A stretch of DNA of 42,867 nucleotides, taken from NCBI GenBank assembly GCA_964196305.1, contig CAXMSJ010000077.1:1-42867 (forward strand), read 5' to 3'. The translations under genes and the position numbers were made by a program. The first letter of the stretch is position 1. Every line of letters begins with the position of its first letter. This document shows, piece by piece, positions 1-33,281 of this stretch. The stretch is from an uncultured Acidimicrobiia bacterium. GTDB taxonomy: Bacteria; Actinomycetota; Aquicultoria; CAJVYJ01; JAUVQD01. Below the pieces are notes generated by a model. The model searched no databases, was not told where the DNA came from, and worked only from the letters and a program-made list of their open reading frames with translations.

Positions 1-1
1 G

Positions 2-1582
2 GTCATCAATAGCCTGGCCATCAATAATGAGGCGACCTATACGGTCTCGACCACAGTGACAGTTGAGAGCTCGGTGACCGGGGCTTCGGAGATGCGGTTT
101 GCAGAGAGCCTAGGTTCGCTTGGTGCTCAGACTTACCAGGCGTATGACACTACGCACACTTTTGTCTTTACTCTGGGCGACGGCACCAAGACAGTGTATT
201 CGCAATTTAAGGATTCTATTGGTAATGTCACCGTGGCCGGCAGCATCGGCTCGTTCGATGCCATCGTTCTCGACCCGCAAGCGCCGGTAGTGGCTTCGAC
301 TGACCCGCCGGACTTGGCCACCTTAGTTTCTACGACCAAGACCGTCACCGTTGATTTCACCGAGGCGAATGGGGTCGACCCGAACACCCTCGCCAACGAC
401 GACACCGAGCCCGGCTCCACCTTCTACCTGAAAGAGGGCGCAAACTGGACGACGGCGACTGTCTCCTATGATCCGGTTCTCAAGCGGGCCAGCCTCGATC
501 CCGTGAGCGCTCTTAGCCAAGGCACCACGTATACCGCCTATCTGACCACGGGCGTCACCGATCTGGCCGGCAATGCCCTGGGGTCCGGATATAGCTGGAG
601 CTTTTCCACGGCTGACAGCGCCCCGCCGGATACGGTTATTACAGATCCGCTGGGCGGGACTCTGACCGGGCCCGCCAAGCTCATCTTGGGAACAGCTGCC
701 GACAACTCTAGCGTTTCCACCGTTACCGTCTCGATCACTCGCGATAGCGATGGTTACTATTGGAACGAGACGACCTGGACGGCATCAGCGGCGTGGAACA
801 CCGCTGTCATCACGGCCGGGCAAGATACCACTGCGGCTTCTTGGCAATATTCATGGGTTCTGCCGAGTGATAACGGTGGTGGCTACAGTATCTCAGCTCG
901 TTCAGCCGACAGCGCGGCTAACACTGACCCGACCCCAGCCACGGTGGCGGTCAATGTGGATAATATTGCCCCGGCAATCACCAGTTTTCTGATATCTAAT
1001 GACGCTACTTATACGAACTCGACTACGGTGACCTTGAATAACTCGGCTTCCGGGGCGGTGGACATGAGGTTCGGCGAGACTACCGCCACCCTTTTAATTG
1101 CAGCTTATGGCTCATACAACACGACGGCAGCGTTTTCGCTCAGCGCCGCCGACGGCACCAGGACCGTCTACTCTCAGTTCAAGGATGTGGCCGGCAATGA
1201 GACGACGCCGGCAATCATCGGCTCGTTCGACGCCATCATTCTCGATACTTCTGCACCGGTAGTGGCTTCGACTGACCCGCCGGATTTGGCTGCCCTGGTT
1301 CCCACAACCAAGACTGTTACCGTTGATTTCACGGAAGCGAACGGGATCGACCCGAGCACCATTGCCAACGACGACACCGAGCTCGGCTCCACTTTCTACC
1401 TGAAAGAGGGCACCAATTGGACGACGGCGACCGTCTCCTATGATCCGGCCCTCAAGCGGGCCAGCCTTCTGCCAAGCGCTGTCTTAAGCGATGCGACCAC
1501 CTATACCGCCTATCTGACCACGGGCGTCACCGATCTGGCCGGCAATGCCCTGGGCACACCGTATAGCTGGAGCTTTTCCACT
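2..1582 (+). repeat. Intragenic tandem duplication with a 972-bp (324-aa) period
   Basis: About 245-609 aligns with about 1217-1581 at offset 972, and 530-582 is identical to 1502-1554 (53 nt). The protein repeat INSLAINNEATYT / ITSFLISNDATYT has the same offset. Confidence 0.92.
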
Positions 1583-3730
1583 TCGGGCATATTCACACAT
1601 GCGCCAGGCGATCCGACAAATCTCGCGGTGGAAGCAGCGGACATGGTCAACTTGCTGACGTGGACGGCCGTGACTCCGGCCAGTGACTCCGGTGGAGATT
1701 TCGATCCGCCGACTCAAGGTGGATATAATATTTACCGGAGCGCTACTGAGACCGGTCCGTGGACGCAGGCGAATGCCACCACTGTTACCACCACGACCTT
1801 TGCCGATCCATCCGATGGCTCACCACCGAGGGGTGTGTTCTTCTATGTGGTCAGAGCGATAGATGCTGCTGGAAGTGAGAGTGGCGACTCTAACAGCGAT
1901 GACAACGGCAATGTCGATATGAGCCGGAGCACTGATACATCCGCTACAGTTTTGATGCGGAGTGCGAATGACTTTATCGACCTGTCTGTGCCCGCTCAGG
2001 GCGCGGCTACGACCTTGACAATCTCGACACCGCTTAGCTATCCGGGCGGCATTAGTCCGTTGACGCTCGTTTATCAATTTGAGCCGACGGGCACAACTCT
2101 TTCCCCGTCGGCTACGGTTACGTTCAAGACGCTCGGGGACCCAACAGACTTGCTGATCGCCGCCAACCGGGGGAGCGGCTGGCAAATACTGAGTGCCGGC
2201 AACTACACTTACGACGTTGCTTCTCAGACAGTTTCCTATGATGGCATAGATCAGTTTAGCCACTACACAGTGGTTGATTCGTCACTGACTCCACCACACG
2301 GAGGGTATCTGCCGACGACGACATTGTGCGAGGTCTGTCATATTCTTCATGGCGACCCAACCGCCGGCTTGCAACGTGAGCGCCGGTTCCTCCGGGCCGA
2401 GGAGGATAGCGCTTTCGCTGTTTTCGCCGGATCGTGGTCCGATGTCGCCGGGGGCGGACGGAGCTCAAACACCGCCACTGTCTCGGCGACAGCAGGAGAT
2501 CAGGTCGACCTGTTTTTCCGAGGCAAAGAGGTTGGTCTGCGCGTCACGGAGACCTCTGGTTCCGGGCAGGCCCGAATATATATCGATGGGGTCGTGCAGG
2601 AGGATATCGATCTCTATCGCTCCGTCGACCGGTATCAAGCACTGTTGTTTTCCGAGGCGGCTCTGTTAAACGCGGATCACACCCTGACAGTCGAAGTGTT
2701 GGGGACAAAGAATGCCAGCTCGACCGGGTTTGCCGTTGAAGTGGATGCTTTTGATGTCATAAAGCTCAAGGACATGGGCCTAACGGCTGATGACGAGAAG
2801 GCTGTTTGTTATGTCTGCCACGATGGCACCGGCAGTGCTTTTGATATCTCGACACAATTTGCGGAAACCTCCGGGGTTCCGGTTCCGGTTTCAAGCCATC
2901 CGGTAGCGGTGGGCACAATCTTGTGCAGTGACTGTCATTCACCGCACGCTTCGGGCGAGGACTGGGATGCCGACCACGATGCCAATGAGGCCGTTCGTCT
3001 TCTCCGGTCCGACTTTCAGACGTATCTGGGGTTTGTGGTCGTTGAGCAGAACACCTGGCTAGACACGCCCGAGCCGGCCGACCTCATTTTTGGTGTGCCG
3101 GAGCAGCGCAAGGTTTTGGCACCTTACGAGGCCTGCGCCTCTTGCCACGGCGTCGGGTCGAGTTTGCCGGGCGGAAATATCACTGAATTTTATGACAATG
3201 GAGGGACGAAGCATGACAGCACAGCCACAGTCCCCGCCGGCACTAAGGCGAATATCGCTTGTACATCATGCCACGAGTGGCACGTCTCCGATCTTCCGGC
3301 TCTTTTGGAGTCGACTATCTCAGGAAGTGCCGTGACCGGTAATGATAATTCGGTTTGCTATGCCTGCCACGCAGAAAACAAGATAATTGCTTATGGTGAT
3401 GCGACGCCAACCGGCGATATTCACGGGGCCAATGAAAGCACGCAGACGACAGCCAGTCCCGGCCTGTTCGCGCCGTACAGCTATCGTGATCCACAGATCC
3501 AGTGCACGGTCTGCCATGACCCGCACGGCACAGGCAATCTCTTGTGGATCCCGGAGACGGTCAATTCGACCGGACCGATATCAGTCAATTCGACGGCGGC
3601 GCCCGATTGGGCGGAGATGGACAGTCTCTGCCAAGCTTGCCATACGACCACCCACAACCCGAACACTGTCTGCACAGATTGTCACTTCCATGGGGCCAAT
3701 GAAGATGCTACAACCACCACTCGTTTCTGA
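2..3730 (+). CDS. Giant extracellular multihaem c-type cytochrome (9 CxxCH) with Ig-like repeats, FN3, ZU5-like and galactose-binding-like domains; 5'-partial
   Basis: The frame is open from base 2 (VINSLAINNEATYT...), so the true start lies upstream of the window. It has Thr/Ser-rich Ig-like repeats (SbsA/Big_5-like 'P.V.ST.P......V.....V.V.F.E...TYTAYLTTGVTDLAGN.L..YSWSF') and an FN3 domain (GYNIYRS...YVVRAIDAAGSES). The C-terminus carries CEVCH, CYVCH, CSDCH, CASCH, CTSCH, CYACH, CTVCH, CQACH and CTDCH. Confidence 0.9.
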   Translation, partial: VINSLAINNEATYTVSTTVTVESSVTGASEMRFAESLGSLGAQTYQAYDTTHTFVFTLGDGTKTVYSQFKDSIGNVTVAGSIGSFDAIVLDPQAPVVASTDPPDLATLVSTTKTVTVDFTEANGVDPNTLANDDTEPGSTFYLKEGANWTTATVSYDPVLKRASLDPVSALSQGTTYTAYLTTGVTDLAGNALGSGYSWSFSTADSAPPDTVITDPLGGTLTGPAKLILGTAADNSSVSTVTVSITRDSDGYYWNETTWTASAAWNTAVITAGQDTTAASWQYSWVLPSDNGGGYSISARSADSAANTDPTPATVAVNVDNIAPAITSFLISNDATYTNSTTVTLNNSASGAVDMRFGETTATLLIAAYGSYNTTAAFSLSAADGTRTVYSQFKDVAGNETTPAIIGSFDAIILDTSAPVVASTDPPDLAALVPTTKTVTVDFTEANGIDPSTIANDDTELGSTFYLKEGTNWTTATVSYDPALKRASLLPSAVLSDATTYTAYLTTGVTDLAGNALGTPYSWSFSTSGIFTHAPGDPTNLAVEAADMVNLLTWTAVTPASDSGGDFDPPTQGGYNIYRSATETGPWTQANATTVTTTTFADPSDGSPPRGVFFYVVRAIDAAGSESGDSNSDDNGNVDMSRSTDTSATVLMRSANDFIDLSVPAQGAATTLTISTPLSYPGGISPLTLVYQFEPTGTTLSPSATVTFKTLGDPTDLLIAANRGSGWQILSAGNYTYDVASQTVSYDGIDQFSHYTVVDSSLTPPHGGYLPTTTLCEVCHILHGDPTAGLQRERRFLRAEEDSAFAVFAGSWSDVAGGGRSSNTATVSATAGDQVDLFFRGKEVGLRVTETSGSGQARIYIDGVVQEDIDLYRSVDRYQALLFSEAALLNADHTLTVEVLGTKNASSTGFAVEVDAFDVIKLKDMGLTADDEKAVCYVCHDGTGSAFDISTQFAETSGVPVPVSSHPVAVGTILCSDCHSPHASGEDWDADHDANEAVRLLRSDFQTYLGFVVVEQNTWLDTPEPADLIFGVPEQRKVLAPYEACASCHGVGSSLPGGNITEFYDNGGTKHDSTATVPAGTKANIACTSCHEWHVSDLPALLESTISGSAVTGNDNSVCYACHAENKIIAYGDATPTGDIHGANESTQTTASPGLFAPYSYRDPQIQCTVCHDPHGTGNLLWIPETVNSTGPISVNSTAAPDWAEMDSLCQACHTTTHNPNTVCTDCHFHGANEDATTTTRF

Positions 3731-4373
3731 TAGACGCGCACCCATCAATCGCTTCCTGGCGATTACTGTCATCATTCTACTGGTGGTGGCCGTGATGATG
3801 GCGGCCTTCGCGGTGGTCGAGGAGTTCAGCGGTCCAGTTGGCCCGGGAGAGATCGTTGAGCAGAGCATCGTTAGATATCGGTTGTTGCTGGCGGAGGATG
3901 CTGAAAATGTTGCTGCTCGTCTTGAGATCGCTCGAGCCTATGTTCGTGCCGGTCGACCAGAGCAGGCGGCAAGAGAATTCAAAATCGTCCTAGAGTCGGA
4001 CCCCAAGGAGGTGGCGAGCCTGACCGGCCTGGCTCGTCTTTATGAGGACGGCGGCTCAGCTTCGCAAGCGCGAGCATATTATCTGCGGGCGACCAAGGTG
4101 GCCCCGGCTGATGAGCTGTCTTGGTTGGGCTTGAGCCGGCTGGCGTTAGCTAAAGAAGACTTTGAAGCGGCAGCTGGACACCTGCGCCAAGCGCTAGCCA
4201 TCAAGCCCACTTTAGCTGATGCGCACTTCGAGTTGGCTCGCACGTACGAACAGCTTCATCGTTATCGAGAGTCTGAGCGCGAGTACGAGGAGGCCCTCCG
4301 GTATGTTCCCGACTACCCCGGAGCGGCAGCCGGCCTAGCCCGGATCGGACAGGCGGGCGGTATTGATGAGTAG
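3699..4373 (+). CDS. Membrane-anchored tetratricopeptide repeat (TPR) protein
   Basis: An N-terminal TM helix (FLAITVIILLVVAVMMAAFAVV) precedes TPR-like units (ARLEIARAY, SLTGLARLY, SWLGLSRLA, AHFELARTY). The start is more plausibly 3699 or 3705 than 3387, which lies deep inside the cytochrome gene. Confidence 0.85.
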   Translation: MKMLQPPLVSDRRAPINRFLAITVIILLVVAVMMAAFAVVEEFSGPVGPGEIVEQSIVRYRLLLAEDAENVAARLEIARAYVRAGRPEQAAREFKIVLESDPKEVASLTGLARLYEDGGSASQARAYYLRATKVAPADELSWLGLSRLALAKEDFEAAAGHLRQALAIKPTLADAHFELARTYEQLHRYRESEREYEEALRYVPDYPGAAAGLARIGQAGGIDE

Positions 4374-5325
4374 AAAACTCTTCGCAGCGGTGGCCGGGGT
4401 CATTATTTTCTTTGGGGTAGGCCTGGTCGCCTACCTATACGTTGATGGAAAAGCCGAGTATCTCCAGGCGTACCAGCCGACGGACCTTCTGGGCTCACCG
4501 CAGTGGCTGTACCCGCTGGAGGGAGACCAGGGGCATCGGATTCTTAAGCCGATGGGACTGGTTGTTCGTCGCGGCAACATCTATGCGACCAGCGCCGACG
4601 GTCGCGTGGTTGTTTCTGATCGTCAAGGCAGCAAATATCGCGATCTGGTGACGATGGAGGATTCGCCTCCGCCAACCGCGATTGTTATCGACGATGAAGG
4701 CCGGACATATATCAGCTCGGCCCAAGGGAAGGACATCCGGGTCTTTGATTCAGAGGGCGAGCCAACCGATGAGGGGCGCCCCCGTCAAAGCAAGCTGAAG
4801 GTCCCGGTGGGGCTGGGTTATCACCAGGGCCACCTATATGTGACCGATGTTGGCGACCATAAAGTTAAGATATTCAGCGCCGGCGGCGAGCTGGTTAAGG
4901 AGTTTGGCGGTTTCGGCAGCCGCGTCGGCAAATTCGCCTATCCGAACGGGGTGGCTGTGGCGCCGGACGGTCGTATTTATGTGGCCGATTCTAACAACGG
5001 TCGTGTGCAGGTCTTTGATCGAGACTGCCAATTCGTCGAGACGCTGCCTCAGCCGACGGCAGAGAAAGACAAGGTCCTCATGCCCAGAGCTATGGCTTTC
5101 GACAGACTGGGGCGAGTTCACGTGCTGGACACATTGCGGGGCTTGGTTCACGTCTACGGCCCGGGCCATAAGTACCTTTTCAACTATGGTCAAGGAGAGG
5201 TGGCTGGGGCGCGGCTCCGCTATCCAAACGCCATTTCTATTGATGCCGAAACAGGCCTAATTTTTATCGCCGACCGGCAGAATAATCGAGTGGCTGTCTG
5301 GGGTGCAGAGCCAAAGCCTCGCTAG
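4363..5325 (+). CDS. Membrane-anchored NHL-repeat six-bladed beta-propeller protein
   Basis: N-terminal TM helix and NHL blades (PVGLG..LYVTDVGDHKVKIF, FAYPNGVAVAPDGRIYVADSNNGRVQVF, YPNAISID..IFIADRQNNRVAVW). It overlaps the TPR stop codon. Confidence 0.9.
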   Translation: MMSRKLFAAVAGVIIFFGVGLVAYLYVDGKAEYLQAYQPTDLLGSPQWLYPLEGDQGHRILKPMGLVVRRGNIYATSADGRVVVSDRQGSKYRDLVTMEDSPPPTAIVIDDEGRTYISSAQGKDIRVFDSEGEPTDEGRPRQSKLKVPVGLGYHQGHLYVTDVGDHKVKIFSAGGELVKEFGGFGSRVGKFAYPNGVAVAPDGRIYVADSNNGRVQVFDRDCQFVETLPQPTAEKDKVLMPRAMAFDRLGRVHVLDTLRGLVHVYGPGHKYLFNYGQGEVAGARLRYPNAISIDAETGLIFIADRQNNRVAVWGAEPKPR

Positions 5326-6452
5326 TCTGTCGGTGAATCCGTTGCTGGGGGTCGCCATGATTCCCAGCCTGCCAACACGATCATCCCCATGCCGAGTGCC
5401 ATCAGCAGGAGCGTTACGACCGCGCCCAAGAATGGGATCAAGCGCACCAGCCCAAAGCCGATGATGCCAATAACGCCGGCGCCGATAGACCAATCTCGCC
5501 CGTTTGATCTGGAGAGTAGGGCGCTTCCTAAAGCCGCTGCGGCATAAACCTGCCCAAGGTAGAGAGCGATGGCATAGAACGCCACGATGATCAGGGCCAG
5601 CGGCGAGGCCAGTCCGAGTGAGAACACCACCAGGAGCAACGATGCTATCGGAGTTAGTAGCAGCACGGCGGCCCCAAGGCCAAGGGTGGCTCCGGGGCGC
5701 TCCCGAAGGACACGGCTGGTATTTTGGAGGGTCGCCGGGAAGAGCCAGTTAGCCGCCAAGACAGTTAGGAGCATCCCCAGCACTGACCAGAGCCATCCGA
5801 CGGCACGGAGCCAAGGCGGTGGTGCCGGCACTTCAATTGGCGCGAGACGCTCCAGGTCTCCGGTAAGTCGGGCCGCTGTGGCAATTTTCGCTTTTTTGTC
5901 ACTCCGATAGACGATATCGCCGTCGATCTTGGCGCTATCACTAAAGGTCAGGCTGTCAACAGTTAGTCTGAGGTCGCCGCCGATTTTTCCGTCAAAGTCG
6001 GCCGAACCTAGCCCAGCGAGGACATCGTCGTCGATCCGGCCATCGGCTTCGAGCACACCTGCTCCGGCGACCAGATCCCCGGCAATGATGGAATTCTCTT
6101 CCAGTATTAGCAGACCGGCGCCAGCCAGCACATCGCGGCCAATGCTTCCAGCGATCGTTACTTGCCCGCCGGCGGCGCGGACCGAACCGGTAACTGGCCC
6201 GCTAATCATGACCTGGCCGCCGGCCACCATGATGTTGCCATCGACCATCCCGGTGATTCTGACATTGCCGCCGGCGACGATCAGATCGCCAGAGATATGG
6301 CTGTCGATCTCGACCGTGCCGCCAAAGACATAGACATCGTCAGTGAGGCGCCGGTCAAGGCGAATCTCTTCGTCAGCATAAATCGTTGCAGCCAGGGCTG
6401 GCTGGGTGGCCCCGATGAGCAGCAACATGATTGTGATGAGAAACAGCTTCAT
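5322..6452 (-). CDS. Exported bactofilin-like (polymer-forming) beta-helix protein with a C-terminal multi-TM domain
   Basis: Signal peptide (..QPALA|A), 15-aa 'G.V.GD...AGG.V.I' repeats, then about 5 hydrophobic helices. Confidence 0.8.
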   Translation of the reverse strand: MKLFLITIMLLLIGATQPALAATIYADEEIRLDRRLTDDVYVFGGTVEIDSHISGDLIVAGGNVRITGMVDGNIMVAGGQVMISGPVTGSVRAAGGQVTIAGSIGRDVLAGAGLLILEENSIIAGDLVAGAGVLEADGRIDDDVLAGLGSADFDGKIGGDLRLTVDSLTFSDSAKIDGDIVYRSDKKAKIATAARLTGDLERLAPIEVPAPPPWLRAVGWLWSVLGMLLTVLAANWLFPATLQNTSRVLRERPGATLGLGAAVLLLTPIASLLLVVFSLGLASPLALIIVAFYAIALYLGQVYAAAALGSALLSRSNGRDWSIGAGVIGIIGFGLVRLIPFLGAVVTLLLMALGMGMIVLAGWESWRPPATDSPTD

Positions 6453-8611: not shown

Positions 8612-9568
8612 ATGATCGAACTGCAAAACGTCAAGAAAAGCTTTGGCGACACGCTAGCGGTAAGCGATTTGTCCTTGATGATCGGCGAGGGCCAAGTCGT
8701 TGGGTTTCTCGGCCCCAATGGGGCTGGAAAAAGCACGACAATGCGCATGATCACGGGCTTTCTCGCTCCCGATGCCGGTCAGATCTTAGTCAATGGCGAG
8801 AGTGTTTTGGAAAACCCCCGGGCGACCAAGTCGCTAATCGGCTATTTGCCGGAGAATAACCCGCTTTACGAAGAGATGCTTGTCCGGGACTACCTGCGCT
8901 TCACGGAGCAGCTGCGCCCCGGAGCCGGAACAGGAGCGATTGAGAGAGCAGTCGCCCAGACCGGCATTGAAACAGTTTATTATCGACCGATCAGCGAGCT
9001 ATCAAAGGGATTTCGCCAGCGGGTCGGGCTGGCGCAGGCGATCCTTCATCAACCAGACATATTGATCTTGGATGAACCGACAGAGGGGCTCGACCCCAAC
9101 CAGCGCGTCGAGATTCGCTCGCTGATTAAAGAGATTGGGCGTAAGCGGACCGTTGTTCTTAGCACCCACGTTCTGCAAGAAGTCCGTAGTACTTGCGATC
9201 GGGTGATCATTATCGACAAAGGTCGTCTGGTGGCGGATGCTGACATTGAGACCCTGATGAGCCAAGCCCAAGGAGCCAAGCACGTCGTTGTTGAGGTGCA
9301 AGGGTCCAAGCCGGATCGGGCCATCCAGGGCTTACCCGGAGTCCTTTCCGTCGAATCCCACTCCGGCGCAGCCCGCGGTCGCCATCGATTGACGGTGACG
9401 GCTGAGGGCGACGCGGAACTGCGACCCCTCCTCTTCGAGCTGGCCAAAGAGCATGATTGGACCATATGGGAGTTGTTTCAAGAAGAAGTTTCTTTGGAGG
9501 ACGTGTTCCGCCATCTAACCGTTGGGACGGAGCGCGATACTGAAGTCACGGGTGGGGCCGATGACTAG
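8612..9568 (+). CDS. ABC transporter ATP-binding protein, GldA-like
   Basis: Walker A GPNGAGKS, signature LSKGFRQR, Walker B ILILDEP and H-loop LSTH. Confidence 0.92.
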   Translation: MIELQNVKKSFGDTLAVSDLSLMIGEGQVVGFLGPNGAGKSTTMRMITGFLAPDAGQILVNGESVLENPRATKSLIGYLPENNPLYEEMLVRDYLRFTEQLRPGAGTGAIERAVAQTGIETVYYRPISELSKGFRQRVGLAQAILHQPDILILDEPTEGLDPNQRVEIRSLIKEIGRKRTVVLSTHVLQEVRSTCDRVIIIDKGRLVADADIETLMSQAQGAKHVVVEVQGSKPDRAIQGLPGVLSVESHSGAARGRHRLTVTAEGDAELRPLLFELAKEHDWTIWELFQEEVSLEDVFRHLTVGTERDTEVTGGADD

Positions 9569-11792
9569 ACGCGTTTGGGTGCTGGCCCGTAAAGAGCTGA
9601 AGGGCTTCTTCGATTCATCTATGGCCTATGTCCTACTGACGGTCTGGTCGGCCTTGAGCGCGTACTTCTTTTTTCGGGCGGCCTACTTGATAGGAGAGGC
9701 CTCGATCCGACCGTTATTTGAGATTCTCCCGTGGCTGCTGCTCTTCTTTGTTCCCGCAGTGACGATGCGTTCTGTGGCGGCGGAAAAGAAAGAAGGCACT
9801 CTCGAGCTGCTTCTTTCCCACCCAATCAGTGAAGCGGAGGTTGTTGCCGGGAAACTCGTGGCCAACGTGCTCTTTATGTTAAGCGCTCTGTTGTTAACCC
9901 TGACTATCCCGCTGGGGCTCTCCTTGGGCGGACAACTTGATCTGGGGATGGTTGTCGGGCAGTACGCTGGGGCTATCTTCCTAGTGTTGGGCTTGGGTTC
10001 GATCGGGCTGTTTGCCTCATCTACCGGTCGCAATCAGACAACCGCGTTTATCGTGTCTCTGGCGCTTTGCTTCGTGTTTATCGCTACCGGGCTGGACTTT
10101 GTGCTGACGGCGATCCCCTCGCGGCTGACCGACACAGTTCGACAATTAAGCGCCCTGACTCACTTCGAGTCGATGGCCCGGGGGGTGTTGGCGCTGGCCG
10201 ATGTGGCCTACTTTCTGGCACTGACGGTGGTGTTCTCTACTCTTAGCTATTTTCTCCTCCGTCGTGACCGAGAGGCTGTACAGACTGCCAGATATCGGAC
10301 TCTGCGACTGGGCACGGCTCTAATTTCGGCCGTCAGCATCTTGGCGGCCTTGATCGCCACCAGCATTGGCGGACGGCTGGACCTAACGGCAGATCGCGTT
10401 TATTCTCTCTCATCAGCCAGCGTAAAGCTGGTACGACAATTACCGGAACCAGTGGCGATCACTTTATACGCGTCTAGCGAGTTGCCTCCAGAAGCAGAGG
10501 TCGCCTACCGGGATGTCCGAGACAAGATTGTTGATTATCAGGCAGTCAGCCGCGGGCGCGTCAAGGCTATAGTGCGGCGTTCCGGCAACAGTCCCGAGGA
10601 CGCTCAAAAGATTGCGGAAGCCGGCATACAGGTCGTTCAATTCAATGTACTTCGTCAGGATGAACTCCAAGTCAAACAAGGACACCTGGGCTTGACGGTC
10701 GAATACCAGGACCAGCGTGAGTCGATGCCGTTTGTCGGCCAGACGACCGACCTCGAATATCAATTGACCAGTCTTATCCGAAAAGTCAGCAGCGATAAAA
10801 GGAAGAAAGTCGGGTTTATTCTCGGAGACAAGGCTCGCAGCCCAGTCGACCCGCTGAACATGGGGGCCGGACAGGACGATGGCTATTTAGCTTGGCAGTC
10901 AGGCTTACGAGAGCAGTACGAGGTGGAGGAGCTTGTCGTGGATGGCCGGGATAAGATACCGGCCGATACCGACGTCGTCATCATCGCCGGCTTTACGGAC
11001 AAGGTGAGCACAGACACAATTCCGGCTGTCGCCAAGTTCCTTAAGGGCGGCGGTTCGGTGTTGGCCCTGGTGGACGCGGTCGACGTAGACCAGCTGACAT
11101 TGCAGGTAGAGCCGGTTAAAAATGCCTTGACTGACTTTGTTGCTGATCAGGGCTTGGTGGTAGAGGAGAAGCTTGTTTTTGATATGGAGTCGAATCAATC
11201 TGTGGCCTTAGGCGCCCAGCAGAGCCAGTTTCTCGTACCGTATCCGTTCTGGCTCAGGGCGGGTCCGGCTTCGGAACACGCCGTTGTTCGGGGCCTTGGC
11301 TCAGTGACCCTCCCGTGGGCACAGCCGGTTCGCATCAAGAAGGACGCGGACAAGGTGGAGCCGCTGTTGACGACCACGCAGTTCGCCGGCGTCCAAGAAA
11401 AGATCTTCAACTTGGCTCCCCAGGCGGAGATGCAGGTCAACCCAGGTGATTTGCAGGAGTATACTCTGGCCGCCGCGCGCCAAGTGCCGGGAGGCGGTCG
11501 TCTGGTCGTGGTTGGTAATTCTGCCTTTCTGACAGATAAGTTTTTGGCCGGGGGTAGGAGTGAAAACGGTTTCTTCGGGCTGAATGCGGTTGATTGGTTG
11601 GCCCAAGATCTGTCTCTATCTCAAATCCGCTCTAAGGCTGCCCAGAGTCGACTCTTGGTTTTTAGCTCGGAAGCTGTCCGTGACCTGGTCCGATACTTCA
11701 ACCTGATCATGGTGCCCTTATTGGTGGCATTGGTGGGCGTGGCGAGGATGGCCGGACGGCGGCGGCTGACAACTAAGGAGTATGGCGCATGA
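9561..11792 (+). CDS. Fused ABC-2 permease (GldF-like) and GldG-family auxiliary component
   Basis: The N-half is a 6-TM permease (KELKGFFDS..AY, PAVTMRSVAAEKKEGTLELLLSHP). The C-half is GldG-like (RLDLTADRVYSLS, EYQLTSLI, GRLVVVGNS, NAVDWL) with a C-terminal TM. ATG 9561 overlaps the ATPase stop. Confidence 0.88.
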   Translation: MTRRVWVLARKELKGFFDSSMAYVLLTVWSALSAYFFFRAAYLIGEASIRPLFEILPWLLLFFVPAVTMRSVAAEKKEGTLELLLSHPISEAEVVAGKLVANVLFMLSALLLTLTIPLGLSLGGQLDLGMVVGQYAGAIFLVLGLGSIGLFASSTGRNQTTAFIVSLALCFVFIATGLDFVLTAIPSRLTDTVRQLSALTHFESMARGVLALADVAYFLALTVVFSTLSYFLLRRDREAVQTARYRTLRLGTALISAVSILAALIATSIGGRLDLTADRVYSLSSASVKLVRQLPEPVAITLYASSELPPEAEVAYRDVRDKIVDYQAVSRGRVKAIVRRSGNSPEDAQKIAEAGIQVVQFNVLRQDELQVKQGHLGLTVEYQDQRESMPFVGQTTDLEYQLTSLIRKVSSDKRKKVGFILGDKARSPVDPLNMGAGQDDGYLAWQSGLREQYEVEELVVDGRDKIPADTDVVIIAGFTDKVSTDTIPAVAKFLKGGGSVLALVDAVDVDQLTLQVEPVKNALTDFVADQGLVVEEKLVFDMESNQSVALGAQQSQFLVPYPFWLRAGPASEHAVVRGLGSVTLPWAQPVRIKKDADKVEPLLTTTQFAGVQEKIFNLAPQAEMQVNPGDLQEYTLAAARQVPGGGRLVVVGNSAFLTDKFLAGGRSENGFFGLNAVDWLAQDLSLSQIRSKAAQSRLLVFSSEAVRDLVRYFNLIMVPLLVALVGVARMAGRRRLTTKEYGA

Positions 11793-12322
11793 GCCAGACG
11801 ACCGTAAACAGATTGATGCAGGCGGTGGCCGTTTTGGTCGTTGTCTATGCCTTGATATTGTTCAATCAGGGGCGCCAGACATCCTCGGGTCTTGCCCGGC
11901 CGGCCGATCTTGCCGGACTAAACACCACAGCAGATAAGCTGGTGGTAAAGTCAGGGACGACGACGGTTGAGCTAAAACGTGAGGGCCCAGACTGGTTTAT
12001 TGACAAGGAGCCGGTCAAACAGGAAAAAGCAGAGGCCCTCCTTTCTTCCCTGGAGACGCTGGAATTCAGCCGGGTGGTATCCGAAGGCGGCGAGACCGCC
12101 ATCGACTATGGCCTAGAAGCGGGAAGCAAGAGCATCGCGATTTTTCAGGGACAGAATGAGCTACGGCGCATCGAGGTCGGTCGGTCCTCGGGAATAGACC
12201 GGTTTTTTGCCCGGCTTGGCGGCGAATCGCGGATTTATGAAGCTGAGGGTGGATTAGCCGTTCTCCTGGATGAACCGTTGTCGTCGTGGACATCCAAAGA
12301 TACGTCAGCCACCGGGCCCTAA
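11789..12322 (+). CDS. DUF4340-like membrane-anchored protein
   Basis: N-terminal TM, 'L.R.G..W' and 'YGL......I......L.VG' patterns, and the usual position after gldG. ATGA overlap with the upstream gene. Confidence 0.75.
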   Translation: MSQTTVNRLMQAVAVLVVVYALILFNQGRQTSSGLARPADLAGLNTTADKLVVKSGTTTVELKREGPDWFIDKEPVKQEKAEALLSSLETLEFSRVVSEGGETAIDYGLEAGSKSIAIFQGQNELRRIEVGRSSGIDRFFARLGGESRIYEAEGGLAVLLDEPLSSWTSKDTSATGP

Positions 12323-13398: not shown

Positions 13399-14727
13399 CT
13401 ATAGGCGCTCGGCGATCAGGGTGGCCAGTTCGGAGCGGACGCCTCGGGCCAAGGTGATGTGTCCGACGCTCGGTTCGCTCTTGAGGCTTTCAATGACATG
13501 AGTCAGGCCGTTGGTCACGGTGTCGAGCAACGGGTGGTCTATCTGGGACAAATCTCCGGTCAGGCAAGCACGGCTGTTGGCTCCGACCCGGGTAAGAACA
13601 CTTTTTATCTCAGAGCGCTCAAGGTTCTGACATTCGTCGATCAGGATAAACTGGTTGGGGATCGATCGGCCGCGAATATAGCTTAGAACACCAACTTCGA
13701 TGATCCCATCTTCAAACAAGTGATCGATACTGTCTGGGTTTCGGCCATCAAAATCAAGCAGGTGCTCGAGATTGTCCTTGAAAGGTTTCAACCACACCGA
13801 CATCTTCTCGTCGAGCGAGCCGGGGAGGAAGCCGATATCTTTGCCCATAGGGATGACGGGCCTAGATACGAGCAGGCGCGAAAAGAGGTCTTGCTGTACC
13901 ACTAGCTCCATCCCAGCCATTAGCGCCAGCAAGGTTTTGCCGGTCCCCGCTGACCCGGCCAGAGTAACCAGGTCAACTTTCTTGTCCATGAGCAGTTCCA
14001 AGGCGAATTCTTGCTCAATGTTCTTCGGCAGGACTGAATAGTTGAAGGTGTGTTTGGAAAAGGGCTTGAGGACTAGACGGTTTTGTTCGTGGTGGGCTCG
14101 GCCGACGGCACTCTGCTTGCCAGCCGTCAGGATGACGAGTTCGTTTGGATAGAGCGGGAGGTCGTCAAACCCCTCTCCGGATAGTTCGAGACTTTTCTTG
14201 CGGTAGTAATCATCGATTATTTCAGCGGCAACTTCTATCTTGATCTGCCCGGAGTAGAGCTCATCGATTTCGACGCGTTCCCGGCGGTACTCTTCTGCCT
14301 CAATGCCTAACGCGCCGGCCTTAATGCGCAGATTGGCGTCCTTGGTCACCAGAATCACCGCGCCCTGCCCACTTTGAGACAGGTGGTAGGCGGTGGCCAA
14401 TATCCGGTTATCGGCCGTCTCACTGTGGATGACAGCCGGCAGGGAGTCGATCGGCGTGTGGTTTAGTTCGATTCTCAGTCGCCCGCCATCAGGCAGGTCA
14501 ACGCCATCCTTGAAGTGCTCGGGATCCTTGGTTCTCAGGGTTTCCAGTTCGCGAATCGCTTGGCGGGCGCACTGGCCGCCCTGGTCCTGGCGACCCTTGA
14601 GGTGATCTAGCTCTTCGATGACCGTAATCGGCAGAACGACCTCATGCTCGTGAAACTTGTACATGGCCAGCGGGTCGCTGACCAGAACATTTGTGTCGAT
14701 AACGTAGCGCTTGCGTGGGCTGCTCAT
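13399..14727 (-). CDS. PIN-PhoH ATPase (PhoH2/YlaK-like)
   Basis: PIN motifs VIDTNVL, ADNRIL and LVTKDANLRIKA; Walker A GSAGTGKT; RGRSI; DECQN. The start is probably MSSPRK (14727) rather than 14787. Confidence 0.92.
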   Translation of the reverse strand: MSSPRKRYVIDTNVLVSDPLAMYKFHEHEVVLPITVIEELDHLKGRQDQGGQCARQAIRELETLRTKDPEHFKDGVDLPDGGRLRIELNHTPIDSLPAVIHSETADNRILATAYHLSQSGQGAVILVTKDANLRIKAGALGIEAEEYRRERVEIDELYSGQIKIEVAAEIIDDYYRKKSLELSGEGFDDLPLYPNELVILTAGKQSAVGRAHHEQNRLVLKPFSKHTFNYSVLPKNIEQEFALELLMDKKVDLVTLAGSAGTGKTLLALMAGMELVVQQDLFSRLLVSRPVIPMGKDIGFLPGSLDEKMSVWLKPFKDNLEHLLDFDGRNPDSIDHLFEDGIIEVGVLSYIRGRSIPNQFILIDECQNLERSEIKSVLTRVGANSRACLTGDLSQIDHPLLDTVTNGLTHVIESLKSEPSVGHITLARGVRSELATLIAERL

Positions 14728-14856
14728 CGTATGGTTATCATACTTGACGGTGGAGTGGTTTTCCAGCTCTGGCCTGATAGGCATCACGGGCAGCTCGTTT
14801 CCTGCGAGCCACCCGCGATACGATCAGTTTCCGGCGGGGAAATATGGGGTTTGGAG

Positions 14857-17461: not shown

Positions 17462-18679
17462 CTAGCCTTCCTGTCCTTCCCTATAGGTGGCAACTTGGTT
17501 TCGTCCACCATTTTTTGCAGCATACAGCGCTTGGTCGGCTTGGTGTACTAGGTTTTCAGGCGTTTTTTCATCGTCGGGGATCAGCGAGGCGACCCCCAGG
17601 CTGATCGTTGCATATCGCCCGATAGCAGAAGATGGATGCTCTAGGCTGAGGCTCTCGACCGCCGCTCGCAGGATCTCGGCGACGTCGAGCGCCCCTGGCG
17701 CATCCGTGCCCGGCAGGACGACCACAAACTCTTCGCCACCGTAGCGGGCGACGATATCGCCGGGTCTCTTTAAGCCATCCGAGATAATGCCGGCCACGGC
17801 TTTCAGGCATTCATCACCTGCTTGATGTCCGAGGCTGTCATTGAACGCTTTGAAAAAATCTATGTCAGCCATGATCACAGACAACGGGGTTGATTCACGT
17901 AATGAGCGACGCCATTCATGGTGTAGAAACTCGTCAAAACTGCGCCTGTTGGCCACACCGGTCAGGCCGTCGATCGATGAGAGGCGGTAAAGCTGCTGAT
18001 TTGTCTGCTCCAGCGTCTTCGCCTCTGCTTCGACCAGATCGACAGTCGGTCGAAAGACGAGGTAGCAAATCAAGATCAAAGCAGTCAGGGTGACCAGCAT
18101 AATGGCCAACGCGAAGTACTGTAGCTGTTCGACATCTTGTCGACTCTCATTAGTATGTATTTGAACAACCTTATTGAGCGTGACCAGCAGCTCGGGGGCC
18201 AATTTTCGCAAGGCGATAGCATCGGGATTGTCGGGAGTCAGGCTGTTGGCATCGGCTGCGACCAGGGATTTAGCATGCCCGAGGTAGGCCGATGTCCGCT
18301 CTCGTAAGCGCTCTGGCTGTTCCAGGTATATGAGCCGGATTTTCTCGGATTTTAGCTGGGGAAGAACGGGGTTTTCCGGCGGATCATCAATTGGTCCGCC
18401 ATTAAGGAGGGCGTCGGCCGAATCTTCCATGAGTAACGTGGTTTGCTGGAGATTGGTCCAGACCGCCTGCCGCTGCTTTTGCGGAGCATGAACCAATTCC
18501 ACTCCCAGTAAAGCGATCCGCTGGGAGAGCATGCGCTGTCGACCGCTGAGGTTGACTAGATCGGCTGCAGCCAGCTGGGTTGTGATCAGCAGTTGCAGCG
18601 TTAAGAAAGAGATGATCGACAGCGCGGCAATGAGCGCGATCGCAAACTGGTATTGGCGCTTAAGTGTGGCGGCTCTCAT
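17462..18679 (-). CDS. Membrane diguanylate cyclase with a NarX/PilJ-type extracytoplasmic sensor
   Basis: TM1, P-box-like VNLSGRQRMLSQRI, TM2, DGLTGVANRR, I-site RPGD and active site GGEEF. Confidence 0.9.
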   Translation of the reverse strand: MRAATLKRQYQFAIALIAALSIISFLTLQLLITTQLAAADLVNLSGRQRMLSQRIALLGVELVHAPQKQRQAVWTNLQQTTLLMEDSADALLNGGPIDDPPENPVLPQLKSEKIRLIYLEQPERLRERTSAYLGHAKSLVAADANSLTPDNPDAIALRKLAPELLVTLNKVVQIHTNESRQDVEQLQYFALAIMLVTLTALILICYLVFRPTVDLVEAEAKTLEQTNQQLYRLSSIDGLTGVANRRSFDEFLHHEWRRSLRESTPLSVIMADIDFFKAFNDSLGHQAGDECLKAVAGIISDGLKRPGDIVARYGGEEFVVVLPGTDAPGALDVAEILRAAVESLSLEHPSSAIGRYATISLGVASLIPDDEKTPENLVHQADQALYAAKNGGRNQVATYREGQEG

Positions 18680-22978: not shown

Positions 22979-25456
22979 CTAAGCTCGGCCCGCTGGGCCG
23001 GCGGATGGAAGATGCTCGATCCGTGCTCTTTTCAGACGTAAAGAGTTGAGCACCACGGTCAGTGAGCTGACAGCCATTGCTCCGCCGGCGAACATTGGGC
23101 TGAGCAAGGTGCCGGTGAACGGATACAGGACTCCGGCCGCTACCGGGATAAGGGCGGTGTTGTAGAAAAATGCCCAGAAGAGGTTCTGTTTGATCGTCTT
23201 GATCGTCCGCTTGCTCAAAGAAATGGCTTCGACAGCTAGTCGCAGGTCGTCCCGGATCAAGGTTATGTCTGAGGCCTCAATAGCGACATCTGTCCCGGTG
23301 CCGACGGCGATGCCGACATCCGCTTGAACCAAGGCCGGGGCATCGTTAATGCCGTCTCCGACCATGGCGACGATCGCCCCATCCCCTTGGAGTTTCTTGA
23401 TCTCGTCTGCCTTATCGCCCGGCAGAACCTCGGCCAGCACCGTGTCAATTCCGACTTCTTTTGCAATGGCGGTAGCGGTGCGAGCATTGTCGCCGGTCAG
23501 CATGGCGACTTTTATTCCCAGCATATGCAACTCTGCGACGGCTGCTCGTGAATGTTCCTTAATAGTGTCGGCGACGGCGATGGCCCCAGCCAAGCGACCA
23601 TCGACAGCGACGTAGACCGCTGTCTTGCCTTGATCGGAGAACTCATCGATGCGGTTCTTCAGTGGTTCGCTGTCGATGCCTAGCCCCTCAAGTAGGGTCG
23701 AATTGCCGATAGCCACGGCTGTTTCGCCGATCTGCGCCCGAATGCCGTGACCGGTCAGGGCTTCAAAGTCCGTCACCGGTGGCAATTCTAGGTCCTGTGC
23801 TTGGGCGGCCCGGACGATCGCTTCGCCAATTGGGTGCTCGGAGCCCTTCTCGGCGGCGGCCGTGAGGGCCAACAGAGTGCCATCTTCAAGCCCACCAGAA
23901 GAGACGATATCGGTGACTGCCGGCTCGCCTTTAGTGAGCGTGCCGGTTTTGTCAAAGACCACGGTAGTTATTTTATGGGCGGTTTCCAGGGCTTCGCCAC
24001 CCTTGATCAGGATGCCGTTTTCAGCTCCACGGCCGGTGCCGACCATGATGGCGGTCGGCGTTGCCAGACCCAGCGCACACGGGCAGGCGATGATCAGAAC
24101 CGCTACGAAATTAAGGAGAGCGAACGTCAACGCTGGCTCTGGGCCAAAGAAGTACCAGGTTAGAAAGGTACTCGAGGCGATGACCATTACTCCTGGCACA
24201 AAGTAGGAGGCAATGATATCGGCTAGTCTTTGAATGGGCGCTTTTGATCCTTGGGCTTCCTCGACCATCCGGACGATCTGGGCCAAAACGGTGTCGCCGC
24301 CGACCCTGGCAGCTCTAAACTTAAAGCTTCCGGAGCCATTGGTGGTGGCCCCGACGACTTCATCATCCAGTCTTTTTGTCACCGGCAGACTTTCGCCAGT
24401 TAGCATCGACTCATCAACGGTCGAAGATCCTTCGACGACGACCCCATCTACCGGGATCTTCTCGCCGGGGCGGACGACGACGATGTCATTGATGGCCACC
24501 TCTTCCAGCGGCAGGTCGAGCTCCTCGCCACCCCTTTCGACTCTGGCTGTCTTGGCCCGCAGCCCCAGTAGCTTGCGGATTGCATCGGATGCTCGGCCTT
24601 TAGCCCTGGCCTCCAAAGAGCGTCCCAGCAGAATTAGCGCGATGACCGCGGCCGATGTATCGAAATAGATGCCGCCTAAGTCACCGGGAAATAACTCTGG
24701 AGCGAACGTAAAAGTTAAGCTGTAAAAGTATGCGGCGGAGGTGCCAAGCGCGATCAACGTGTCCATTGTGGTCAGACCATGCTTGGCGGCACTCCAAGTG
24801 CCCGCATAGAACTGGCGTCCGGCCCAAAATTGTATCGGGGTCGCCAGGATAGCTAGGACATAATGATTTTGCAGCAGGGCCGGAGCCCACGGGAAGATCT
24901 CGGGCATGCTTCCGATCATAATGAGCAGGGCCCCCACGGCGCTTCCCGTTAGCTTCAAATTGAGCTCTCTCAGTTCGCTTGCCCTGATCGCTTGTTCTCT
25001 ATCGGCGGCCAGCTCAGAATCGGAAAGCGCGATCGGCCGGAAACCGGCGTCCTTGATCGCGTCCTTGATCCGACTTTCGCGGATCACCTCCGGATCGAAT
25101 TTAATGCGGGCCTTTTCGAAAGAAACATTGAGGTCGAAGGAGTCGACACCGTCTAGAGACTTAAGGATATTGTCCACGGCCCCACCGCTTTTTGGAGAGT
25201 CCATGCCCAGCACCGACAAATGCAACTCATTTCGAGCTCTTTTTTCCGGCAGAATGAGGTCGTAGCCGGCATCTTTGACGACAGCGCGGATGGCTTTCAA
25301 GTCGATCTTGCTCTGGTCGAACTCGATCTGCGTACTCTGCGCGGCCAAGTTGACGGTGGCGTTCTCAACCCCCTCGGTCTCCCGCAAGGCGGTCTCCGCC
25401 CGCCTGACGCAGGAGGCACAGGTGAGGCCGGTGATCGGAACGGTAGTTTTCTCCAT
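22979..25456 (-). CDS. copA: Copper-translocating P1B-1 ATPase
   Basis: MBD GLTCASC, TGES, CPC in the TM, DKTGT, SEHP, GDGIND, YN and MxxSS. The start is at MEKTT (25456), because the longer start would span the operator and promoter. Confidence 0.95.
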
Positions 25457-25476
25457 GACATACCCTCTTTCCAAGA

Positions 25477-25493
25477 ATACCCCTATGGGGTAT
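25477..25493. promoter_or_regulatory. CsoR operator ATACCCC-TAT-GGGGTAT
   Basis: Perfect inverted repeat with C/G tracts between divergent copA and csoR, matching the established CsoR operator pattern. A minus-strand TTGACA -35 lies at 25517-25522. Confidence 0.88.
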
Positions 25494-25582
25494 ATTGTTA
25501 CCCTAGAGTACAGGTCTGTCAAGATATTTTTTGTTGGCCTGGCGGGGAAACAGCTTGATTAAAGAACAGGAGGTGAGAGAGG

Positions 25583-25930: not shown

Positions 25931-26134
25931 ATGGAGAAACTGGGGTATGCGATCTTGCTGGTCGCAACAGTGGCCTGGCTGGCCAGCATGATCTGGGAGA
26001 TGGTGCCGATCTGGCCGGAAGGGGCGATCGGGCTGGTCACCCTAGTGGGGCTCGGCCTACTTTTTACCAAGGCTCTTGCCGATCGCGTTAAAGCAGCGCG
26101 GACCGACAAATATTCGAAGGATGTTAAGAGGTAA
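25931..26134 (+). CDS. Small 2-TM membrane protein
   Basis: 67 aa with two hydrophobic helices, RBS GGGAG and an upstream TATAAT. It abuts the ybjQ-like gene. Confidence 0.7.
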   Translation: MEKLGYAILLVATVAWLASMIWEMVPIWPEGAIGLVTLVGLGLLFTKALADRVKAARTDKYSKDVKR

Positions 26135-26470
26135 ATGGAGCTGTTAGAAACGACCCAAGATGAATTCGCGGATTATGAAATAAAGGAAACCCTAGGGGTG
26201 GTGCGGGGCAATACTGTCCGTGCTCGTCACGCTGGGAAAGATATTATGGCTGGGCTGCGAAACATAGTCGGGGGCGAGATCGAAGAATATACAAAATTGC
26301 TGGCAGAGTCGCGGGAGCAGGCTACCGACCGGATGAGGGATGAAGCCAGGAAGCTCAATGCCGACGGGATTGTTTGCATTCGCTTTACGACCTCGTCGAT
26401 CATGGGGGGCGCTTCGGAACTTTTTATCTATGGAACCGCCGTTAAACTAGCCAAGAAAGCGACCGGCTGA
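26135..26470 (+). CDS. YbjQ/UPF0145 family putative heavy-metal-binding protein
   Basis: GLRNIVGGEIEEYTKLLAESREQA...ADGIV...YGTAVK signature. Confidence 0.9.
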   Translation: MELLETTQDEFADYEIKETLGVVRGNTVRARHAGKDIMAGLRNIVGGEIEEYTKLLAESREQATDRMRDEARKLNADGIVCIRFTTSSIMGGASELFIYGTAVKLAKKATG

Positions 26471-26495
26471 TTACTATGTCGCCAACTGGGTCGAC

Positions 26496-26855: not shown

Positions 26856-26858
26856 GCT

Positions 26859-27152: not shown

Positions 27153-27165
27153 ACTTTAGGACAAA

Positions 27166-27330: not shown

Positions 27331-27344
27331 AGTCATCACCCCCG

Positions 27345-33245: not shown

Positions 33246-33281
33246 ATCGCAGTCGTGGTACTCCGATGATAAAATAAGGAT

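Follow-up and report, generated by a model that had tools for sequence, protein, structure and literature searches.

The stretch of DNA analysed here, called the window below (42,867 nucleotides, contig CAXMSJ010000077.1 of GenBank assembly GCA_964196305.1), opens inside the gene of a giant multihaem c-type cytochrome, in which nine CxxCH motifs are gathered in a C-terminal head behind a long, haem-free stalk of immunoglobulin-like (Ig-like) and FN3-like domains. We suggest, with moderate confidence, that the protein is a cell-surface cytochrome of a monoderm member of the Actinomycetota and is built for extracellular electron transfer (EET). To our knowledge, electron transfer across the thick wall of monoderms is poorly understood, and the few cases studied use cytochromes of 6-11 haems. 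Here a genome of ~1.5 Mb devotes a 6.5-kb gene to a cytochrome whose haems all lie at one end of a haem-free rod, which raises a testable question, namely how a redox head works at the end of an insulating stalk.

The giant gene and its product

The genome under study is a bin (G000) in which the window is contig C77; two further contigs, C30 (L001) and C53 (L002), matter for what follows. The initial annotation, made from the letters of the window alone, had described an open reading frame (ORF) of more than 1240 amino acids (aa) with nine CxxCH motifs at its C-terminal end and neither a C-terminal transmembrane (TM) helix nor a sorting signal, and had pointed to the upstream contig for the missing N-terminus. 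Each of these points was borne out. The ORF has 1,242 aa and nine motifs, it contains zero hydrophobic 19-residue windows and hence none at its C-terminus (...HFHGANEDATTTTRF), and no LPXTG-like motif was found in it. The window begins at a contig end, and the N-terminus of the cytochrome was located on C30: ORF residues 1-46 are 100% identical to the start of C30 (tblastn against G000), the reverse complement of C30 ends exactly in the first 141 nucleotides (nt) of the window, and C30 is the sole contig in the bin that overlaps the window start, giving the chain C43 > C30(-) > C77(+). The frame on C30 runs 980 codons upstream to a GTG start, and the complete protein therefore has 980 + 1,242 - 46 = 2,176 aa. 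Both the join and the start are supported by P0001, an independent metagenome protein of 2,180 aa that is collinear with the two halves (60% identity over residues 42-980 and 58% over the 1,242 aa).

The N-terminus encoded on C30 consists of K/R residues, a 12-residue hydrophobic core and then APGASS, and appears to be a Sec signal peptide; the initial annotation had made its proposal hinge on a secretion signal in the missing part, and a candidate is thus present. The order in the full protein is signal peptide, ~15 beta-sandwich domains and nine-CxxCH head. Apart from the signal, hydrophobicity marks only one marginal 19-residue window, from residue 290 (1.78; threshold 1.6). The protein is strongly acidic (D+E 251 versus K+R 87) and rich in Thr (295). 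The full 2,176 aa hold no LPXTG-like motif, and Pfam detected no SLH domain in the window ORF or in the C30 part. Sortase or SLH anchoring was therefore discarded, as there is no LPXTG-like motif, C-terminal hydrophobic window or SLH domain.

The stalk

The haem-free N-terminal part spans ~1,690 aa and ~15 Ig/FN3-like domains, a count that takes a ~230-aa module as two domains, judged from its length without a model. Internal repeats and Pfam matches give the order as two copies of this module, each followed by a unit of Big_7-like, ~90-aa and Big_5 domains, then a third such unit, an FN3-like domain and a last beta-sandwich. The third unit is 49% identical over 336 aa to full-length residues 267-591, and AlphaFold2 (AF2) models it with a predicted local confidence (pLDDT) of 80-95. 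There are three Big_5 domains in the full protein, two of which were found by Pfam in the window ORF (104.9 bits; cut-off 23.6). The AF2 model of ORF residues 200-760 (mean pLDDT 84.1) has five consecutive all-beta sandwich domains, and its best PDB matches by Foldseek are tandem Ig/FN3 chains, cadherins, the adhesin SiiE, the S-layer protein SbsC and the FN3-like modules of CbhA. The Ig/FN3 stalk of the initial annotation is hence supported by the modelled beta-sandwiches, the Ig/FN3-tandem matches and Big_5, while the FN3 part finds no backing from Pfam, which called no FN3 domain in the window ORF at E<=0.01. A protein-atlas search with the N-terminal stalk module reached a best score of 0.86 at a lower recognition than usual, which is at most a lead.

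An Ig-like domain is ~4 nm long, and we estimate that the stalk would measure ~55-60 nm if extended. Electrons cannot run along it, because it has neither a cysteine nor a haem site. The earlier remark that a haem-free stalk calls for another electron route therefore stands, all ORF cysteines being in the motifs of the head.

The composition of the stalk also bears on the idea of an S-layer-like lattice, in which Big_5 stalks self-assemble and the heads form a redox-active outer sheet, like the S-layer-fused cytochromes that have been proposed for anaerobic methanotrophic archaea (ANME). The three Big_5 domains are of the SbsA type, SbsC is among the Foldseek matches, the protein is Thr-rich and acidic, and a precedent is in print for ANME MHC-A/B (available text of PMC9012536). 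However, Pfam found no SLH or other wall-binding S-layer anchor, SbsC is one among many generic Ig-chain matches with TM-scores of 0.1-0.13, and the stalk-head fusion is limited to one genus, whereas an S-layer protein would be expected to be general. We regard such a lattice as improbable.

The nonahaem head

The nine CxxCH motifs start at ORF residues 776, 936, 975, 1045, 1087, 1119, 1168, 1210 and 1224; between them they account for every one of the 18 cysteines in the ORF. Pfam recognises Paired_CXXCH_1 (PF09699; 50.6 against a cut-off of 20.6), Cytochrom_c3_2 (PF14537; 44.7 against 25) and the MtrC/MtrF domain II/IV (PF22113; 34.9 against 30) in the head. The motifs, these three families above cut-off, the export signal and the Ccm genes of the host together place the protein among the predicted multihaem c-type cytochromes. 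Membership of the MtrC/OmcA decahaem family was considered and rejected, as there is one domain II/IV-like stretch and the decahaem models of NCBIfam fall well short of the required scores (37.5 versus 192.2 and 18.2 versus 325); the NrfB model does so too.

In an alignment of six full-length heads the histidines of the nine motifs and 10 other histidines are invariant (6/6), which suggests nine bis-histidine (bis-His) electron-transfer haems. No open catalytic haem is apparent, because second histidines are conserved for all nine. A profile search of PDB sequences with the head returned seven sequences at E<=1, with OmcS (6ef8; E 4.4e-6) first, followed by NrfA (4e-4) and an unrelated enzyme (1.4e-3). 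A catalytic, NrfA-like role was discarded in view of this weak match and the conserved second histidines.

The AF2 model of the head, built on a 13-row alignment, has a mean pLDDT of 45.5, and only a jelly-roll insert between the first two haems is confident; the Foldseek result for the head thus bears on this insert only. Its matches are MiXBM (7ehg; TMt 0.72), BT_2959 (3nqh) and carbohydrate-binding modules (CBMs) of families CBM6/35/36. That the jelly roll is an insertion follows from the homologue P0003, which lacks it.

When the 498-aa head was searched against 1.84 billion representative proteins, 4,909 matches were obtained at E<=0.001. Among the 150 matches listed, only P0001, P0002 (509 aa) and P0005 (502 aa) are near full-length; P0003 (392 aa) and P0004 (208 aa) match the C-terminal two-thirds of the head or less, and most others cover query residues ~52-176 (the insert) only, often repeatedly in one protein. 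A word-indexed search gave 16 proteins at E<=1e-20, which comprise the stand-alone heads P0151-P0154 (508-520 aa; 96% query cover), P0003 (66%), P0155 and P0164 (50-58%) and nine others with under one third, again the insert. All stand-alone heads have a signal peptide that leads directly into PHGxY...CxxCH of haem 1, and they end in ...CHFHGA..D..TT.F. In 40 sampled relatives of the host, full-length matches occur in family f1 only (G001, of the same genus as the host, 76%, G003 48%, G004 44% and G005 43% identity). Some head match at E<=0.001 is present in 32 of 41 genomes (G000 included), with partial ones in the order, and the listed matches outside f1 are mostly to the insert or to single haem stretches. 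The phrase 'undescribed system' in the initial annotation is too strong, since sister genera have the head as an ordinary cytochrome of its own; the link to NHL and TPR genes is also in print (PMC10376724, as far as its available text goes).

The last ~15 residues of the head (window 3683-3727; HFHGA..D..TT.F, ending in Phe) are strongly conserved in stand-alone, fused and 14-haem relatives, while heads with 13 haems have another conserved tail, Y.H[AD]Y. The tail is possibly a docking or chaperone-recognition signal. A complex prediction of the downstream TPR ectodomain with the last 59 residues of the cytochrome, which probed a CcmI-like grip on this tail, scored 0.00 against a mark of 0.32 and, being without controls, is evidence neither way. 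In more remote relatives within the same order, the eight-haem C-terminal portion of the head recurs at 32-44% identity in proteins of 12-15 haems and 718 to >1,128 aa (L065, L066, L067, L029/L016 and L017), where it follows partly haem-free N-terminal regions.

A second stalked cytochrome and the anchor

Immediately upstream of the giant gene, C30 carries a gene for a single-pass TPR protein (260-aa ORF), which is preceded by a HAMP-GAF-HD-GYP gene. The upstream TPR protein scores 42.9 with Pfam TPR_CcmH_CycH (PF23914; cut-off 42), versus 24.2 for the TPR protein downstream of the head.

How such a protein may serve the cytochrome is suggested by a second stalked cytochrome locus in the same genome. 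On contig C53 the terminal 261 aa of a Paired_CXXCH cytochrome, with nine CxxCH among them, are encoded ahead of a stalk ORF with a 20-residue TM helix, TPR, Big_7-like, Big_5 and FN3-like domains, at which point the contig ends. The locus is truncated by contig ends in both G000 and G001. The orthologue in G002, a genome of the same genus, is complete, with 1,319 aa that comprise TM, TPR (48-98), Big_5 (393-499) and 13 CxxCH from ~865 to the end, and it is preceded by the gene of a 14-haem TM Paired_CXXCH cytochrome. In G003, G004 and G005 the stalk-plus-haem protein itself opens with a signal peptide, and the TM-TPR (231-247 aa) is encoded by a gene of its own directly upstream; these TM-TPR proteins have the upstream TPR of C30 as their nearest match (phmmer E 1e-35 to 4e-35). 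A TM-TPR is thus found at all visible starts of stalk genes (7/7), either fused (G000 C53, G001 and G002) or encoded immediately upstream (G000 C30, G003, G004 and G005). Moreover, P0166, a metagenome protein of 2,783 aa with a signal peptide, ~2,200 haem-free residues and 13 terminal CxxCH, indicates that long stalks occur with the 13-haem head too.

The fused TM-TPR paralogue implies that in this design the membrane anchor is N-terminal and the haems are at the far end. By analogy, and as is usually argued from gene fusions, the giant protein is probably tethered at its N-terminus by the separate TM-TPR. The anchoring rests on this analogy because the 12-residue core of the giant protein is short and probably cleaved. 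The position of the head at the stalk tip, as the initial annotation had it, thereby gains indirect support. G000 and its relatives thus own another stalked cytochrome, in which the head differs and the TM-TPR is fused. This suggests that uncultured sediment Actinomycetota use one design, made up of anchor, spacer and redox head, more than once.

Several signalling genes are clustered around the locus. The HAMP-GAF-HD-GYP gene (C30 3772-5667, -) is on the same strand as the TPR and giant genes, and the window holds a PilJ-GGDEF gene (17462-18679, -) and a second GAF-HD-GYP gene (30202-31851, -). A surface structure under cyclic di-GMP control may be indicated by them.

The TPR and NHL genes downstream of the head

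Directly after the cytochrome gene come the TPR and NHL genes that the initial annotation had described as overlapping and single-pass, and this description holds. From any of its ATG candidates, the TPR gene starts inside the cytochrome gene, ahead of the stop codon of the latter (3728-3730), the NHL start overlaps the TPR stop by 8 nt, and both proteins open with a basic stretch and one hydrophobic helix and have Pfam support. From the positive-inside rule applied to the basic N-termini, the TPR and NHL domains are predicted to lie outside.

Linkage was surveyed at ten loci where the head homologue reaches 40% identity or more and the flanking sequence extends for 1 kb or more (the window, G001, G003, G004, G005, L058, L059, L060, L062 and L064); the short fragments L061 and L063 were excluded. 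TPR and then NHL follow directly 3' of the head in the window, G001, G005, L058, L062 and L064. The head is followed by a TPR gene and then the contig end in G004, and a TPR gene also follows it in the fragment L061. Counted within two genes of the head, NHL is present at 8 of 9 judgeable loci and TPR at 7 of 10, so that the linkage among homologues on which the earlier proposal depended does exist; the loci are related and not independent (L062 and G004, for instance, are identical at the N-terminus). That NHL and TPR genes neighbour multihaem cytochrome genes, as the initial annotation had stated, is already in print for Gram-positive iron reducers (PMC10376724, available text).

The stalk is fused to the nonahaem head in the window, P0001, L058 (77% identical head; 5'-open, 1,065 aa) and L059 (62%; 5'-open, 761 aa), and in G001 the head gene is cut by the contig start. 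A stand-alone head closes a cluster in G004, G005 and L064 that encodes a cytochrome b561-type protein, 7-, 18- and 7-haem (TM) cytochromes, a small lipoprotein-like protein and a polyferredoxin; in G005 and L064 this cluster is then followed by TM-TPR and TM-NHL. Judged by its genes, the cluster has the make-up of a putative membrane-to-surface electron chain. The downstream TPR and NHL proteins belong to the head, because both also accompany the stand-alone head in sister genera. Their most likely task is to assist its maturation, docking or assembly where the membrane faces outwards.

The same facts can be read with the protein the other way round. In that case the signal would be cleaved and the head kept at the wall or membrane by the CBM-like module and the downstream TM-TPR and TM-NHL, with the stalk as an outward adhesin that holds minerals or partner cells near the cytochromes. 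The stand-alone and fused forms do not differ in head, C-terminal tail or TPR/NHL neighbours, and where the head stands alone, as in sister genera, it can only be located at the wall or membrane. Moreover, the signal peptide appears cleavable, the CBM-like insert is the sole recognisable ligand-binding module, the mature protein is very acidic and folded like adhesins such as SiiE, and the problem of a haem-free gap disappears. Against this stand the paralogue, in which TM and TPR are fused N-terminally with the haems at the opposite end of the stalk, and the gene of the same TM-TPR type just upstream of the giant gene. We consider the inverted orientation possible but rather unlikely.

The cluster of the sister genera likewise bears on a non-respiratory role, that is, a secreted redox protein that binds polysaccharides or particles and serves, for example, in detoxification of metals or oxidants or in electron supply to extracellular enzymes. 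A CBM-like insert combined with Big_5/FN3 modules is typical of carbohydrate-active surface proteins, and no quinol oxidase gene adjoins the giant gene in G000. However, conserved second histidines leave no open catalytic haem apparent, Pfam and NCBIfam found no catalytic domain, and the stand-alone head shares an operon with the cytochrome b561, the 7-, 18- and 7-haem cytochromes and the polyferredoxin. This role seems to us very improbable, slightly more so than the lattice considered above.

The host and its haem maturation genes

Bin G000 comprises 1.31 Mb in 114 contigs (completeness 87.65%, contamination 0.16), and the host is a small-genome (~1.5 Mb), probably monoderm actinobacterium of marine sediment. 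A DNA run labelled marine sediment metagenome contains 0.87 of the sampled words and is possibly the source sample; its reads gave short contigs that covered 30 of 30 bins, with no indels or joints. No Omp85 was found in the search of this 87.65% complete genome, and a diderm envelope was set aside on that basis; the Gram-positive setting assumed at the outset thus fits the Actinomycetota host. Beyond the window ORF, 13 ORFs of G000 have at least two CxxCH motifs, with a maximum of 10 haems each. Small-genome Gram-positive cultured relatives in the wider phylum, the Anaerosomatales, have 17-18 multihaem cytochromes, and one isolate is an obligate Fe(III) respirer that uses ferrihydrite (available text of PMC9686372).

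For cytochrome c maturation, G000 encodes a CcmF/NrfE-family protein (E 4e-100), two CcmE, CcmC and CcmB, and ResB/CcsB was not found in the search of the bin. System I (Ccm) was chosen as the maturation route because these Ccm genes are present and no ResB was found, and System II was set aside for lack of ResB. The maturation system that the initial annotation needed to find in the genome is accordingly there. The maturation-gene contigs are C42, C4, C35, C68 and C72, with five Cytochrom_C_asm matches (CcmC/CcmF/CcsA type) above cut-off. Two CcmE genes stand in tandem, in a genome of ~1.5 Mb, and the duplicated maturation genes are reminiscent of the extra CcmF near giant ANME cytochromes.

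Proposed function

The proposal of a surface cytochrome for EET starts from the observed architecture, signal, Ccm genes, gene linkage and fused paralogue; how the protein is exported, loaded with haem and oriented, which partners it has and in which direction electrons flow are its conjectural parts. The precursor of ~2,176 aa would be exported via Sec by its N-terminal signal peptide, and nine haems would be attached by System I. The single-pass TPR protein encoded just upstream would hold the N-terminus at the membrane, and the stalk, at its full extension, would carry the nine-haem bis-His head and its CBM-like module across and beyond the wall. There the head may exchange electrons, in either direction, with a mineral, a humic substance or a partner cell. 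With an insulating stalk, the head has to meet other surface cytochromes of the cell in order to be charged, possibly by swinging back on a flexible tether, through the shorter 13-haem stalked paralogue or head to head.

A more specific form of this proposal, which we offer tentatively and think unlikely as a whole, is a captive shuttle. The head, leashed by TM-TPR on a flexible, non-conducting Ig chain of ~55-60 nm, would load up to nine electrons at wall-embedded cytochromes and unload them on minerals or partner cells within reach, and the shorter-stalked 13-haem paralogue may be a lower tier of the same arrangement. If true, this would be a way to cross a thick Gram-positive wall without a continuous haem wire, and it would define a modular family of TM-TPR anchor, Ig stalk and interchangeable multihaem head in marine-sediment Actinomycetota.

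Several observations weigh against the EET proposal. The haem-free stalk is a gap in any electron path. No quinol-oxidase/multihaem cluster lies beside the giant gene (window and C30), unlike the stand-alone head of relatives, and OcwA, OmhA, MtrC and OmcZ are absent from the PDB profile search at E<=1. The linkage to TPR and NHL has its exceptions: in L059 NHL is directly downstream of the head with no TPR, in G003 NHL is two genes upstream of it with no TPR nearby, and in L060 neither gene occurs within 2.4 kb upstream or 8 kb downstream. The anchor analogy is drawn from a paralogue with a different, 13-haem head. The search of sequencing runs returned no RNA run with this sequence and hence no support for expression. 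Finally, mis-binning of a contig is conceivable in a bin of 114 contigs, though contamination is 0.16.

Features of the locus and other genes of the window

Table 1. Positions of the stalked nonahaem cytochrome, its domains and the associated genes (window coordinates unless a contig is named)
Feature	Position	Strand	Basis and remarks
Stalked nonahaem cytochrome, C-terminal part	2..3730	+	1,242 aa (with stop), 5'-open ORF
Stalked nonahaem cytochrome, first 980 aa	L001 (contig C30) 2942..3	-	tblastn, 141-nt contig overlap
Big_5 (SbsA-type Ig-like), second copy in full protein	272..610	+	Pfam PF13205, best stretch residues 91-203
Third three-domain repeat: Big_7-like, ~90-aa domain, Big_5	614..1582	+	Internal repeat, Pfam, AF2
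FN3-like domain and last stalk beta-sandwich	1595..2272	+	AF2 ~340-560, all-beta, pLDDT mostly 75-90; Foldseek
Nonahaem head, unit kept as stand-alone ~510-aa secreted cytochrome in sister genera	2234..3727	+	Homologues, alignment
CBM-like jelly roll between haem 1 and haem 2	2381..2773	+	AF2 pLDDT ~80-94, Foldseek
Single-pass TPR protein, ~222 aa	3705..4373	+	Alternative ATG 3690, 3699; Pfam TPR_19 66.2 bits
Single-pass NHL-repeat beta-propeller protein, 319 aa	4366..5325	+	Pfam NHL PF01436 85.9 bits (cut-off 20), 3 stretches
Second stalked cytochrome locus	L002 (C53) 1-3118; L136 (G002:C2) 722-6178		TM 14-haem + TM-TPR-stalk-13-haem

A convergent 376-aa gene (window 5322-6452, -) overlaps the NHL stop, and its position beside NHL is kept in G001, L058 and L059. 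Its product has a signal peptide, Gly/Asp-rich repeats (GDLxVAGGxVxIxG-like) and several C-terminal TM helices; no family scores above cut-off, and the single match is FapA at E 0.0086. The ABC-2 transporter genes 3 kb from the locus (8612-12322, +) specify an ATPase, whose gene is syntenic in G001, a 756-aa fusion of ABC2-membrane and ABC_transp_aux, and a DUF4340 protein. Other genes are a PIN-PhoH gene (13399-14787, -) and a Cu/heavy-metal P-type ATPase (22979-25522, -). In the last third of the window (~26000-42867) G+C drops from ~0.55-0.59 to 0.44-0.52, and this part encodes a sulfide-dehydrogenase-like flavoprotein, pirins, a PKD-domain protein, a TauE exporter and an APH-type kinase.

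Comparison with known systems

Surface multihaem cytochromes of monoderms, their NHL/TPR neighbours (PMC10376724) and giant fusions with haem-free domains in ANME (PMC9012536) are known. Our literature search found no description of an Ig-stalked multihaem cytochrome in the Actinomycetota, although the supplementary multihaem lists of PMC9686372 and PMC10376724 may hold similar proteins. The features that the literature search did not find are an Ig/Big_5/FN3 stalk with all haems C-terminal, a fused or adjacent TM-TPR anchor, interchangeable 9- and 13-haem heads, and the occurrence in small-genome sediment Actinomycetota.

OcwA of 'Thermincola potens' is a nine-haem terminal reductase on the cell surface of a Gram-positive. 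The giant cytochrome shares with it nine haems, a monoderm host, secretion and, presumably, a function where an EET chain meets the outside. However, no sequence relationship was detected (PDB profile search, E<=1), and the protein does not belong with OcwA by sequence. OcwA is not known to have an Ig-like stalk, and its haems have other ligations, whereas the ten conserved extra histidines found here suggest bis-His ligation throughout. OcwA is also named in PMC9686372 (available text).

In the giant ANME proteins MHC-A/B/C, multihaem regions are combined with large haem-free extracellular domains (S-layer, peptidase-M6-like or pectin-lyase-like), according to the available text of PMC9012536. 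The likeness lies in this combination of multihaem and large haem-free extracellular domains, in the lack of an outer membrane and in dedicated maturation genes nearby (same source). The ANME proteins are archaeal, with 20-86 haems, a C-terminal TM in types A/B and haem inside the S-layer linker (PMC9012536), whereas our protein has a bacterial host, an Ig/Big_5/FN3 stalk, 9 or 13 haems at the C-terminus only and an N-terminal TM-TPR anchor. OmcS, the nanowire cytochrome of Geobacter sulfurreducens, is the best solved-structure match to the head profile (28.8 bits), over short, collinear stretches around the CxxCH of haems 4, 5, 7 and 8. The match appears to be at the level of motifs, in a search where an unrelated enzyme also scores. 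With its six haems, OmcS lacks both the jelly-roll insert and a stalk.

CcmI/CycH is the TPR apocytochrome chaperone of System I. The TPR proteins described here resemble it in having a membrane-anchored TPR domain that is predicted to lie on the outer face, the upstream one scoring just above the family cut-off, but they have one TM helix and no other CcmI features, their genes lie beside the substrate gene and not in a ccm cluster, and the downstream one remains well below that cut-off. The stalk domains are similar in fold and tandem arrangement to SiiE (2yn5) and SbsC (4uj6), and share the Big_5 family; the TM-scores are low because domain angles differ. None of these giant Ig-repeat adhesins and S-layer proteins, in contrast, has a cytochrome domain.

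In Dethiobacter alkaliphilus, a Gram-positive iron reducer, NHL/TPR genes stand beside secreted multihaem cytochromes in EET clusters, and it has been suggested that the gene products take part in secreting or orienting the cytochromes or in assembling complexes (PMC10376724, available text). Unlike there, a single-pass TPR/NHL pair is here translationally coupled to one defined nonahaem gene and conserved across genera, and a second TPR type is fused to stalked cytochromes. The widespread and so far unexplained NHL/TPR neighbours of Gram-positive multihaem genes hence gain a defined partner.

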